From positions 96,536,001 through 96,600,000 of the forward strand of contig CM059432.1 of assembly GCA_030390025.1 (NCBI GenBank): a stretch of DNA of 64,000 nucleotides, read 5' to 3'. The notes under the pieces are model-generated. The model did not search any database, was not told the origin of the DNA, and saw only the letters and a program-made list of their open reading frames with translations. Source of the DNA: Squalus acanthias. Taxonomy: Eukaryota. How positions within the stretch are numbered: the stretch's first letter is position 1; each line of letters begins with the position of its first letter. A program made the position numbers and the translations under genes. Shown here one piece after another: positions 32,912 through 42,762 of the stretch.

Positions 32912-33829
32912 TGTAAGGGGTTTTCTCCGATACCGGTCCCCCGTTACACACAGTTCTTGGATGTCAGGATTTATAAGAACAAAATACACACGGCACAGGG
33001 TTTTGGCTCAACCTTTGATTCGTTCATTTATTGAACACACACACACAATTACTTCCCCAGTATAAATCACTATGATTTATATCAGGCTAACAACCCCAAA
33101 ATACAAACCCCTACGCAAGGGTCATTTGCATCGACACAATATGACACAGTTAAACCCGTCTGTGATTTGACTGTTACATATAAAGTTACCCAGACTCAAT
33201 CACAAAACCCTTATTGTGATCTGACTGAAACTCACAAACTCACTCAGACTCAATCATAAAAGCCCCCTCTATGATTTGACTGAAACATACAATCACCACT
33301 CCCGATCGGCTGTCTCTTGGAGTTGATTGTAGGCCCGAATCTTTCTGTTCGCTGTTCTGCCGTCGGCTTCCCACACACCGCCTTCGAAGTGCTCTTACTT
33401 TAAACCAAAACCAACTTGCAGTATTTCCTGGCTCTCTGCTGAGCATACGATTCATTTCAAAATGTGTGAATTGTCCCTGGTATTGTCCATTGATTTGAGA
33501 TATCTTTCTGACAATGCAACCTTCCCAAAGTGACTGCATATGCGAAGTTCTTGGTTTCTGTTAGCATTCGTATTCAAAAGGCCCATTGTGTAGGCCTGCA
33601 CTGAAACTGGTTATTCAGGGGCCATGGTCTAAGTTGGACAATGTAACCTCTTAAGGACATGAATATGCGGATGTTCTTGTTCAGATTTTAGATTCGTAGT
33701 TTCGGCTGCAATGTTTGAATTAACCTTTTATTGCCGAGCCCTTTTTGCGGGCTTTGCAGTTCTGGGTTTTTATATTTCATAGTCCAATATTTTTACCGTG
33801 GTGGGGGGGGGGGAGGAATTGATCCTACA
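32912..33829 (-). repeat. 3' LTR (918 bp)
   Basis: Direct repeat of 41470-42762; minus-strand AATAAA at 33027-33032; TATA-like TTTAAA near 33400. Confidence 0.95.
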
Positions 33830-33844
33830 TCTCCCCCCTTTAAT
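33830..33844 (-). promoter_or_regulatory. Polypurine tract
   Basis: ATTAAAGGGGGGAGA immediately upstream of the 3' LTR TG on the minus strand. Confidence 0.9.
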
Positions 33845-33951
33845 ATCTCTTACATTAGAGATATTACTTCCGTCCATTCTTCTGCCGTGGAGGGTGCATT
33901 GTCGGTCCCAGCCAAATCTCACATTTTTTTACACAGTCTATACATTTGATT

Positions 33952-36290
33952 CTATAATCCCAAATTCCCTTGATACAGTCTTTCCTGTTTTTCCCTTTTT
34001 ACCCTTCGTTTCGTTTTACACGATAACCTGAACAGATAGAACACCATAATTAATTGCACAATTATCAATACATGTGAGGCAATTCCGATCCAGGGAGGAA
34101 TTTTAATATTAAACCCAATGTCCCACCAAGGTGGGATGGTCATTTCCCTGATCTCCTCTTGCATTTCTCTGTTTTCCTGCTGGAGAGCGTAGTAATGTTT
34201 TTGGGAAAGCTCCACTTCCTTTAACAGTTTTGTCAAATGCTCAGGTAATGGCAGGATATCTTACCCAAAATGTGATATATAATCTTGGAGGTTTGGTAAA
34301 ATACCGCCCACTGTGAGATTTACTTAGGTGTGATCTGAAAATGGGATTATCCTTTCCTGTGCCACTTGAACCTCTATCAGGGGGTTAAAACAAAAGGTCG
34401 AGTCGTAAATTGGACACCAGGTATCTTTGTGTACCCTATACTGATTCGCACTGGTGGTGACACAGTAGGTTCCATTCCCCTCATAAGCAACCTGGGGCGG
34501 GATGTGCCTCTGAGCCATCACCTGCATGGTACAGTTGATCGGTTGTGCGCTTTCAGATTCAAAACCACATGCCGGTCGGTCGAACACATTCAGGTGATGT
34601 GGGCACAACACTACATGTGCACCCCTTTCCTGACATCCCTTCAAATCCATGCCGGTCATGGAGTTCCCCCACTTAACCACATACGCAGGCACCCCATGAT
34701 GCTGCACATATACCCCATTTCGGATAACACCAACATTTTCCACCCGATATACCGGCACTGGCCGTTGTGACTGACCCATCACTGGCATCCTGAGAACTAT
34801 TCCCATTATGGTTTGGTTGTACTGATCACAAACGATTGGGACTGGGTACGCTTCGGAGGCCAACCGTAGCTGGCACGGGTTCATGAGATTGTCATAAGTG
34901 CTCAAGGCTCTTAGGTGTCTGTTGTCAATCCATGATGGTATGTGACTTTGCTCCAAATCCTCTAAATTACTAAGCCCCTCATTTAATAACCAGGCACCGT
35001 ACATAACACACGCATCATTTTGCGCGGCCCGGTCCGACGTGTTCCGGTCCTCCTTTATTAAGTTGTTTATGGTCTGGGTGTGAGTTTCCAGCTCAGCTAT
35101 TACTTCTTTTAGGTGAATGGTCTTTACTTGGTCTTCTTGTAATTCCTGTCCCTCAATCTCATTACCCTCCCCCAGTAACCTTTTTAGCTGATCCCGTAAA
35201 GTATTGACCTGCGCTTGCAGCTGAGCATCATCTATACTATTGACCAGTGACATCCCCGTATTAAACACCGTGGCCGCGTCATTGATCAATCCCCTCTTCC
35301 GTCTCCCCAAACCGGTGTGACTGTTGTCAGCTCGTTTATACAAATCCTTCCGACTTTCTTCCCGTAGTTCAACTCGTAGAATTGCCGGAACATTTCTTTT
35401 AATAGTTTCTCATAAAAATTTTCCGTTTCAGCTGGGCACCACCGGAGTAGCTGTACCTTTGTCAAATTAAGGATAACAGATGCTACCTCATAATGCACGT
35501 CATGGTACAACACCTTCCCTGTTGGAATCAGTACTAACCCATTCCTCGGTCCGGGTGTCATTGTGGGGCACTTAACCTCTTTATCCCGTGTCTTTGGGGC
35601 TGATGGTAGGGGCTTCTTATCGTGCGCTACTAGTTCGGTAGCATTGACTGCGTTTGGAGGATCTGGGACCACACACGAATCGATGAGTCCAGCCTATTCC
35701 AGACCCGAAATCTTGCCATTGCCATTTGAAAGCGATGGACACCCCCTTGTGGCATTTACGTTCTGATCCTCCCACACACACATAAACCCCTTGTTCCTCC
35801 TTCCACCACTTGTCCCAACATAATTTCACACACCTCTTTGTCCCCACAATCGATCTGTATGAGTCGTTCCCCAATCTTTCCCAATCCGTTGATTCAGAAC
35901 CCTTTGCCTTGTCTGTTTTTCGTAGCCACCACCACCATCCCACGGAGATACTTCCCCAGCATTCTAGGCACACTTACCTTCTCTCGTTCACCAGTACCTT
36001 TTTGGTGGTGATATTTAATTTGGGGCAGGGCACTGATGCTTCACCGAATTTGTAACCAGTGTAATTGGAATATTTATATTAGTGGAATTTGACCCCAACC
36101 AACCCGGCCATTCTCCCTCATGGAAGTATGTAGCTATCCCATCAGTGCCCTGTGCTCTACCTCCCTGTGTTACAGTGGGCCCGGCTCCTCCCATACACCC
36201 ATAAGCAAATGACATCTCGATGTCGCCTCGCTCCATCTGTCCTGGTCTGATCAGGATTACCAACAGGCCCAACCACAGAGTGCATTCCAT
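33952..36290 (-). pseudogene. env: Envelope glycoprotein, class I F-like fusion protein with an N-terminal Ig-like domain; several stops and frameshifts
   Basis: Signal peptide MECTLWLGLLVILI, furin site RRKR|GLIN (35293-35304), heptad repeat, Cys-rich region, second heptad, PPWWD, TM WIGIASHVLIIVQLIMVFYLF, basic tail. Confidence 0.85.
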
Positions 36291-36315
36291 CCTGCGTCCT
36301 CCGTTCGACTCGCCT

Positions 36316-41424: not shown

Positions 41425-41446
41425 AATTTTGTTCTAAACCTTGACG

Positions 41447-41464
41447 TCCTGCCGCCGGTCACCA
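41447..41464 (-). promoter_or_regulatory. Putative primer-binding site, tRNA unassigned
   Basis: TGGTGACCGGCGGCAGGA begins after a 5-nt spacer following the 5' LTR CA. Confidence 0.6.
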
Positions 41465-41469
41465 GATTC

Positions 41470-42762
41470 TGTAAGGGGTTTTCTCCGATATTGGTCCCTC
41501 GTTACACACAGTTGTTGGACGTCAGGATTTATAAGAACAAAATACACATGGCACAGGGTTTTGGGCTCAACCTTTGATTCGTTCATTTATTGAACACACA
41601 CACACAATTACTTCCCCAGTATAAATCACTATGATTTATATCAGGCTAACAACCCCAAAATACAAACCCCTACGCAAGGGTCATTTGCATCGACACAATA
41701 TGACACAGTTAAACCCGTCCGCGATTTGACTGTTACATATAAAGTTATCCAGACTCAATCACAAAACCCTTATTGTGATCTGACTGAAACTCACAAACTC
41801 ACTCAGAATCAATCATAAAAACCCCCTCTTTTGGTCCGTGCCTTTTCCCTTTTTTTCTCTCTCTCCCCCCACGGCAGCTGTCTCTGATTCTGCCAGCATT
41901 TCACACCTTACCTTTTGTTTCTCAACCTGTCCCATTACCATCTCGTCTTGCCTTGAGCATCTCTTAATGTCTCTACTCACTAAAGACCATCCCTTTTGTT
42001 CTTTTATTCCTCCCCCCAGCCTCCCCCTTGCATTTTTATCTGTTTAATTTCTTGCTCTTTCAGTTCCGACGAAGGGTTTCGACCTGAAACGTTAACTCTC
42101 TTTCTCTCTCCACGGATGTTGCCTGGCCTGCTGAGTTTTTCCAGCGTTTTCTGTTGTTATTTCGGATTTCCAGCATCCGCAGTATTTTGCTATCATAAAA
42201 GCCCCCTCTATGATTTGACTGAAACATACAATCACCACTCCCGATCGGCTGTCTCTTGGAGTTGATTGTAGGCCCGAATCTTTCTGTTTGCTGTTCTGCC
42301 GTCGGCTTCCCACACACCGCCTTCGAAGTGCTCTTACTTTAAACCAAAACCAACTTGCAGTATTTCCTGGCTCTCTGCTGAGCATACGATTCATTTCAAA
42401 ATGTGTGAATTGTCCCTGGTATTGTCCATTGATTTGAGATATCTTTCTGACAATGCAACCTTCCCAAAGTGACTGCATATGCGAAGTTCTTGGTTTCTGT
42501 TAGCATTCGTATTCAAAAGGCCCATTGTGTAGGCCTGCACTGAAACTGGTTATTCAGGGGCCATGGTCTAAGTTGGACAATGTAACCTCTTAAGGCACAT
42601 GAATATGCGGATGTTCTTGTTCAGATTTTAGATTCGTAGTTTCGGCTGCCATGTTTGAATTAACCCTTTATTGCCGAGCCCTTTTTGCGGGCTCTGCAGT
42701 TCTGGGTTTTTATATTTCATAGTCCAATATTTTTACTGTGAAGGGGAGGAATCGATCCTACA
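41470..42762 (-). repeat. 5' LTR, interrupted by a Penelope-like insertion
   Basis: Direct repeat of 32912-33829 plus a 362-bp insert and its TSD. Confidence 0.95.
41830..42191 (+). mobile_element. Penelope-like 3' fragment inside the 5' LTR
   Basis: 18-bp TSD atcataaaa(a/g)ccccctct (41812-41829, 42192-42209); absent from the 3' LTR; hammerhead-like CCGACGA..GAAACGTT. Confidence 0.82.

Follow-up and report, generated by a model that had tools for sequence, protein, structure and literature searches.

The window analysed here is a stretch of 64,000 nucleotides from Squalus acanthias (GenBank assembly GCA_030390025.1, contig CM059432.1, positions 96,536,001 to 96,600,000 of the forward strand). 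It contains an endogenous retrovirus (ERV) on the minus strand, running from window position 42762 to 32912, with two long terminal repeats (LTRs) and with gag, pol and env all present but broken. This is a real but dead, defective provirus. It probably combines a canonical retroviral reverse transcriptase (RT), most likely of the basal grade related to snakehead retrovirus (SnRV; clade Huo), with a predicted envelope protein (Env) that resembles the fusion (F) proteins of paramyxoviruses and likely bears an immunoglobulin (Ig)-like attachment head. The features of the provirus, in window positions, are as follows.

32908..32911, no strand: left copy of the target-site duplication (TSD), GTTC (sequence comparison)
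32912..33829, minus: 3' LTR, 918 bp, TG...CA (893 of 911 aligned bases match the 5' LTR)
33830..33841, minus: polypurine tract (an identical tract precedes the 3' LTR in other two-LTR copies)
33952..36290, minus: env, about 780 codons, with stops and frameshifts
36600..37375, minus: integrase core and C-terminal part (integrase core Pfam match, E 1.3e-7)
37365..37853, minus: RNase H, second domain (PF00075, E 2.1e-14)
37928..38366, minus: tether, a degenerate first RNase H (PF17919, E 2.6e-20)
38367..39156, minus: RT, with YVDD at 38700-38689 (RT Pfam match, E 7.7e-36)
39400..39771, minus: aspartic protease, with DTG at 39666-39658 (weak RVP match, E 0.0064)
39772..41424, minus: gag region, broken, with a coiled-coil N-terminus (position; TGA-CTAG end, in frame with pol)
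41446..41464, minus: tRNA-Arg(TCG) primer-binding site, altered here by one substitution and an additional base
41470..42762, minus: 5' LTR (LTR alignment)
41812..42191, no strand: 380-bp insertion inside the 5' LTR; a young repeat of high copy number, flanked by an 18-bp target duplication
42763..42766, no strand: right copy of the TSD, GTTC (sequence comparison)

The two LTRs are 98% identical over the aligned bases (Kimura two-parameter distance, K2P, 0.020), both end in TG...CA, and the 4-bp GTTC duplication flanks the provirus on both sides. The distance corresponds to an age of about 45 million years at a shark rate and about 4.6 million years at a mammalian rate, neither of which was measured in this host; the shark rate is the 2.2e-10 per site per year assumed by Han 2015. 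The primer site begins five bases past the 5' LTR. In two sister copies, 18 bases of it agree exactly with the 3' end of a tRNA-Arg(TCG) gene from the same genome.

Along pol, the Pfam matches follow the order protease (weak), RT, tether, RNase H and integrase. Compared with sister copies, about 500 bp of pol is missing near 37372, which removes the zinc-binding N-terminal domain of the integrase and the start of its core. The gag region is inferred from its position, as it has no Pfam gag match, no CCHC knuckle was seen in it, and its N-terminal coiled coil gives non-specific Pfam matches only. Of the 21 copies examined, 11 show it closing with a single TGA that shares the reading frame of pol and precedes CTAG. 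The sequence TGA-CTAG is a context for stop-codon readthrough. The repeat inserted in the 5' LTR is 99-100% identical in all 40 genome matches that were scored, and a plasmid search with it gave no match, nor did an Rfam search; several sister copies are interrupted by similar later insertions. The copy at 32912..42762 cannot mobilise itself.

An earlier note on this DNA had described paired LTRs with a 4-bp TSD, an RT with YVDD and two RNase H-like domains, all of which were found again. It had also called the provirus near-complete. That has to be qualified: every gene is broken, part of pol is absent and the 5' LTR is interrupted.

Placement of the Pol domains

The position of the RT was assessed in three trees, built from the RT (tree 1), from the RT with a mixture model (tree 2) and from the RT plus tether (tree 3). 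Four of 120 RT matches were dropped for short coverage; of the 116 left, 47 were used in another tree and 31 in tree 1. For tree 2, as well as for the approximately unbiased (AU) test of the RT and that of the foamy grouping, 11 of 52 rows were removed, including the long branches L032 and P0113. The references were SnRV (L033, identified by its match to the SnRV row of Wang and Han Dataset S2, PMC7947760), the walleye viruses (L056, L054-55), foamy and gamma records, and three loci with the lokiretrovirus RT motif, two of which appear by eye to be nearly identical to teleost lokiretrovirus rows of the same dataset.

In all three trees, the RT of the Squalus element lies inside the canonical-retrovirus clade, with the lokiretroviruses as the sister outside it (support 100/96, 99/98 and 100/98 in trees 1 to 3). 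This topology, with lokiretroviruses sister to the canonical retroviruses, is the published one (PMC7947760). Forcing the element to group with lokiretroviruses costs 15.4 log units for the RT (AU p 0.030) and 26.2 for RT plus tether (p 0.005). The RT has no lokiretrovirus signature; its motif, LPQGFH.SP.IFHQ, is that found in the SnRV row.

Within the canonical clade, the element sits among SnRV, coelacanth, frog and other ERVs, and the SnRV-type group has a support of 86/90 in tree 1. The nearest named RTs are those of ERV proteins from coelacanth and frog, at 49-52%. Among the viral references, the best bit score belongs to the SnRV RT (204, 41% identity), compared with 173 and 165 for lokiretroviruses, and the RTs of the walleye epsilonretroviruses, walleye dermal sarcoma virus (WDSV) and walleye epidermal hyperplasia virus (WEHV), form a separate clade. 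Besides the RT motif and the bit score, the element shares with SnRV (clade Huo, PMC8922424) a gag-pol boundary marked by one in-frame stop. SnRV-like proviruses have been described from a cartilaginous fish, as CmiERV lineage I of the elephant shark (PMC4422223); the available part of that account contains no analysis of Env.

The remaining Pol domains give a less settled picture. The trees of tether, RNase H and Env (13 rows for Env) give no supported position for the element, and its integrase, which is 43% identical to that of lokiretroviruses, has no fixed place in an integrase tree in which CGIN1 itself was not included. In that tree, the lokiretrovirus integrase groups with 'NYNRIN-like' ERV proteins of frogs and coelacanth whose RT is canonical (96/93), so a CGIN1-like integrase may not be specific to lokiretroviruses.

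A search with the exact lokiretrovirus-motif pattern gave no match in this genome and none in IMG/VR. As a separate observation, a metagenome collection holds host-derived lokiretrovirus sequences (L051, L052, L053), of which L051 includes an env open reading frame (ORF).

The Env protein and its N-terminal extension

Env starts at the methionine of a predicted signal peptide, and its parts, all on the minus strand, are these.

36235..36290, minus: predicted signal peptide (hydropathy peak at the Met, 36290)
35740..36045, minus: probable Ig-like domain, broken in this copy, boundaries approximate (Pfam and profile matches)
35305..35570, minus: F2-like segment opening at a CP..PGP..G motif (profile alignments; in the model, alignment to F starts at about residue 126)
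35293..35304, minus: furin site RRKR (ORF 34324-35409)
33955..35292, minus: F1-like subunit, 446 codons, with fusion peptide, long helix, beta domains, second heptad and transmembrane helix (sister-copy ORF, 86% identical)
34030..34083, minus: transmembrane helix (hydropathy)

Counted from the Met in a sister copy, the CP..PGP motif stands at residue 238, the last residue of RRKR is number 330, and 446 residues follow. The furin site is thus not early in env, as the earlier note had it, while the F1-like subunit of about 440 residues that it described after this site is present and ends in the transmembrane helix. The absence of a gamma-type CX6CC motif, also claimed there, was borne out: neither CX6CC nor CXXC occurs in either of the two natural Env ORFs inspected, both from sister copies, and Pfam scans gave no match of Env to TLV_coat, the gamma-type Env family.

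The fold was predicted from a sister copy's natural ORF, 657 residues long (mean predicted local distance difference test score, pLDDT, 61; predicted template-modelling score, pTM, 0.44). With this model, the top Foldseek match is the F protein of human parainfluenza virus 3 (hPIV3; E 7e-12), and the matches listed are paramyxovirus and pneumovirus F proteins only. In VIA-align, ranks 1 to 9 are F proteins (Z 12.2-9.4), followed by foamy Env (Z 8.5), the first unrelated row being at Z 5.7. Against the predicted structures of BFVD, the list is headed by glycoproteins from negative-strand RNA viruses of arthropods, along with baculovirus F, and the retroviral matches come after these: the Envs of WEHV-1 (E 3.6e-9), WDSV (E 2.3e-5) and feline foamy virus. 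This is in line with the earlier note, which had called Env F-like and had set this against a match to a retroviral transmembrane subunit; in the profile comparison with a gamma Env control, the transmembrane helix alone was aligned (probability 3.7%).

Searches of the Env ORF as a single sequence against Pfam and the PDB gave no match, and the signal comes from profile and fold searches. The Env profile matches hPIV3 F0 first among PDB sequences (E 0.014) and foamy gp130 third. Of the three viral Envs compared, the lokiretrovirus Env is matched best (E 2.9e-14), then those of WDSV (E 4e-10, 348 columns) and SnRV (E 2.6e-5, 282 columns). All three alignments are collinear; they begin at the PGP motif, cross the furin site and reach into F1. 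Together, these findings suggest that Env is a paramyxovirus-F-like fusogen with the shared three-domain F1/F2 core, and of subclass Ib, as predicted from the model. It shares the predicted fold and the F2-furin-F1 order with paramyxovirus and pneumovirus F at 10-16% identity. These F proteins have no N-terminal binding domain, and binding is carried out by a separate attachment protein.

Ahead of the F2-like part, the Squalus Env has about 235 extra residues. In both lokiretrovirus Envs examined the PGP motif lies at about residue 23-29, so that the protein passes from the signal peptide straight to this motif. The SnRV Env also has a long N-terminal extension, though it is over 1100 residues in length against about 780 for the element. 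Part of the extension is probably folded as an Ig domain, judging from several sequence matches that are weak but agree with one another. Firstly, it has the conserved Cys, Trp and G.Y.C motifs that correspond to the Ig B-strand Cys, C-strand Trp and F-strand G.Y.C. Secondly, all 10 aligned head members match Pfam Ig_3, with a best E of 0.0011, all of them falling short of the curated cutoff. Thirdly, the head profile matches an Ig domain of VEGFR3 first among PDB entries (E 0.018). An Atlas search returned Ig clusters at 0.83-0.85, which is at lead level only.

On balance, and by analogy, this head would serve in attachment. The extension can be read as a binding module because no separate attachment gene is present and because such a module fits the F-scaffold model of Fernandez et al. 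Foamy Env similarly combines an F-like core with a binding module, but its receptor-binding domain lies between the subunits and it has a second, N-terminal membrane anchor, whereas the extension of the Squalus Env is N-terminal, behind a predicted signal peptide (PMC11468914).

The heads of related Envs appear to vary. Frog ERVs of the same RT grade (the C-terminus of P0011, P0153, P0143, P0170) have Envs of this family whose head resembles a V-set domain (Pfam V-set, E 0.045), and members in Mustelus and Heterodontus have a third, Cys-rich head type. Profile comparison detects no homology between the shark extension and those of the frog-type or Chiloscyllium Envs, so that the heads of shark, frog and Chiloscyllium Envs may be independent captures; as far as sequence comparison goes, the heads may be swapped modules. 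The SnRV (L033 6131-9535) and WDSV (L056 5962-9651) Envs have the F-like core in common with the shark family.

The literature search found no report of an Ig head on an ERV Env and no statement that the Env of SnRV, of SnRV-like viruses or of epsilonretroviruses is F-like; that search did not take in Calcraft et al. 2024 (Cell) or Wang, Chen and Cui 2023 (J Virol), which may be relevant to the point. The epsilonretrovirus Env has been termed a distinct, non-gamma and recent development, with no fold named in the text available (PMC9967133), and in 2021 its surface subunit could not be modelled. Viro3D expects further F-like cases in Retroviridae. A 2026 preprint on chondrichthyan Envs screened with syncytins and, in the part available, does not mention lokiretroviruses, SnRV or paramyxoviruses.

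Competing explanations and the origin of retroviral env

If the element belongs to the SnRV-related grade and has an F-like Env, its replication can be pictured as follows. Pol would be made by readthrough of the TGA at the end of gag, reverse transcription would be primed by tRNA-Arg, and the integrase would produce the 4-bp duplication. Furin would cut Env into an F2/F1-like pair, linked by disulfide or by strand pairing, and free the fusion peptide; the N-terminal extension would bind the cell and trigger fusion, upon which the Env trimer would refold to a six-helix bundle, as F does, and fuse the membranes. The family may have spread through repeated infection of the germline or by retrotransposition, and decayed later.

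Several results weigh against this interpretation. The SnRV group is a basal polytomy in trees 2 and 3, a group of the element with SnRV is supported in only one of the three trees, and the AU test does not reject joining the element to foamy viruses (p 0.16). The trees hold two to three lokiretrovirus RTs, all of teleost type, and are without lokiretroviruses of lamprey, amphibians and eel, Odin, fish foamy-like ERVs, labelled ERV-L, beta- and lentiviruses. The tether, RNase H and integrase score higher against lokiretroviruses than against SnRV, whose tether and integrase are distant from those of the element, and the TGA-CTA gag-pol junction is common to the element and two lokiretrovirus loci, whereas SnRV and WDSV use TAG. 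The Env model is moderate by its pLDDT and pTM, and the root-mean-square deviation of its top matches is 10-31 A, because either the conformations differ or the model is loose. Lastly, the model of the N-terminal extension is poor (pLDDT 37) and has no significant fold match: the best Foldseek E is 0.017, and the best VIA-align Z is 6.7, to beta-sandwiches of bacterial adhesins, both within background.

The lokiretrovirus-like tether, RNase H, integrase and junction may have been kept from an ancestor, or they may reflect exchange. In the latter case, the element would be a recombinant in which a canonical RT was joined to downstream pol domains and an env from a lokiretrovirus-type or other F-bearing donor, making the F-like Env a later capture. 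Swapping of RNase H and integrase domains is documented (PMC7947760), and the lokiretrovirus integrase does group with frog and coelacanth members of the element's own RT grade. A capture would also fit the predicted-structure matches, in which WEHV and foamy Env rank below baculovirus F and the glycoproteins of negative-strand RNA viruses from invertebrates. However, the addition of the tether to the RT makes the rejection of lokiretroviruses stronger and not weaker, one Env family and one Pol grade occur together in sharks, a skate and frogs, SnRV and WDSV themselves carry the F-like core, and the 13-row Env tree resolves no affinity to lokiretroviruses. A recombinant origin is thus considered unlikely.

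The earlier note had placed the provirus in or near the lokiretroviruses, where it would be a divergent member and the first from a cartilaginous fish. The resemblance is considerable: the element and lokiretroviruses (PMC7947760) share the LTR-gag-pol-env plan, a tether followed by RNase H, an F-like Env with RXKR and the TGA-CTA junction. Tether, RNase H and integrase all score higher against lokiretroviruses than against SnRV, foamy or gamma viruses, and Env aligns best to theirs. Lokiretroviruses were found in none of six chondrichthyan genomes (PMC7947760), and with so few screened a sampling gap is possible. Nevertheless, membership is very unlikely and is largely refuted by the RT, which lacks the motif and is excluded from the lokiretroviruses by three trees and by the AU tests; this genome has no match to the exact motif pattern, and the 235-residue extension sets Env apart from the lokiretrovirus Envs. 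What stands of the earlier placement is the likeness of tether, RNase H, integrase and junction. In the RT phylogeny that the note had proposed, no clade with lokiretroviruses was recovered, and the RT does not nest in Ty3/gypsy.

That note had taken dual RNase H together with an F-like Env as the mark of lokiretroviruses. Neither is diagnostic. The Env of lokiretroviruses is indeed akin to the F proteins of Mononegavirales, and some members have an smc-like accessory gene, but the dual RNase H (tether plus RNase H) is common to all retroviruses (PMC7947760). Because both features occur outside lokiretroviruses, they cannot be used to assign an element to them.

A basal foamy-like ERV (clade Tu) is highly improbable. 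Foamy Pol proteins are the top PDB sequence matches of the protease-RT region (E 1.4e-42), although such matches cannot discriminate, since SnRV-type and lokiretrovirus sequences are absent from the PDB. Foamy Env is F-like too (PMC11468914), and the AU test leaves this grouping unrejected. Yet the readthrough-type gag-pol junction and the Arg primer speak against it, as does the position of the extension, and none of the three trees recovers a clade of the element with foamy viruses. An env-bearing Ty3/gypsy (errantivirus-like) retrotransposon is refuted: invertebrate Ty3/gypsy elements bear F-type env according to the literature, but the element has a tether and a second RNase H, and the gypsy outgroup is set apart at 100/99-100 in all three RT trees.

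A canonical RT of the SnRV-related grade with an F-like Env bears on where retroviral env came from. Wang and Han left four scenarios for this origin open because an F-like Env was then known from lokiretroviruses only (PMC7947760). Foamy structures later supplied a second case, and in that account foamy Env is subclass Ib, with orthoretroviral Env placed apart as subclass Ia (PMC11468914). Since the core of the Squalus Env aligns to lokiretrovirus, walleye epsilonretrovirus and SnRV Envs, an F-like Env is no hallmark of lokiretroviruses and may be ancestral. It can tentatively be suggested that this Env type is the ancestral one of retroviruses, surviving in lokiretroviruses, foamy viruses, SnRV, walleye epsilonretroviruses and the lineage of sharks, skate and frogs, each with a binding module of its own, here a captured Ig domain. 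The Envs of gamma- and betaretroviruses would then be later replacements, and the lineage of the Squalus element a basal canonical grade that has kept a lokiretrovirus-like tether, integrase and readthrough signal.

An F-like core in a canonical lineage that is not foamy, together with the SnRV and walleye alignments, makes it testable whether there is one F-like Env clade that tracks the RT. An Ig-like head would also be a third mode of adding an attachment module to an F scaffold, beside the coronavirus spike and foamy Env.

Related copies and surrounding DNA

The provirus is one of a family. In the 3.7-Gb genome, an env probe gives at least 41 matches with 78-100% identity (40 scored of 1685 candidates), which amounts to at least 40 related copies. 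An Env-head protein probe gives at least 151 matches (150 scored of 6203), which fall into about three identity tiers, at close to 90%, 63% and 56%. Both outer ends are visible in 6 of the 21 copies examined, and four of these six have an exact 4-bp TSD; their LTR divergence is 0.020-0.064. None of the 21 copies has an uninterrupted env. The retention of env in all tiers suggests that the family may have spread by reinfection.

One member of the 56%-identity subfamily (L089-L090, G000:C8:43753000-43766000) has LTRs that are 98.7% identical and an env, with no detectable pol; it is a non-autonomous, younger relative.

Outside this genome, three of the four close Env protein matches are from sawshark, and of 10 further Env matches looked up, seven are from sharks or a skate and two from frogs; by themselves, these matches point to a cartilaginous fish as the host. 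Across these groups the Env family accompanies one Pol grade. In one frog protein, a Pol of this grade runs on into the N-terminus of an Env of the same family (48% over 107 amino acids, E 3e-32). Some gene models of cartilaginous fish join Env pieces to host genes, namely fbxo15, Niban 1, cadherin-like and zinc-finger genes (P0128, P0129, P0133, P0142, P0162), and may be annotation chimeras or cases of exonisation.

The provirus is embedded in repeat-rich DNA, and no host gene is evident among the ORFs of at least 200 codons in the window. By motifs recognised by eye, we take the segments at 3841-6444, 8543-9643, 18084-18737, 43364-45871 and 60934-62071 to be copies of a Harbinger-like DNA transposon; a transposase-like ORF of 433 codons lies at 5143-6444 with a convergent partner ORF. 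The segments at 22992-23612, 49560-50204, 56555-58698 and 62780-63538 are presumably RT fragments of the long interspersed element type, again named by eye. Elsewhere in the genome, at about 39.0-42.2 Mb of contig G000:C26, large tandem arrays have a 1.62-kb unit that carries tRNA-Arg(TCG) and tRNA-Ser(GCT) genes, and the array pattern has 422 exact matches genome-wide.

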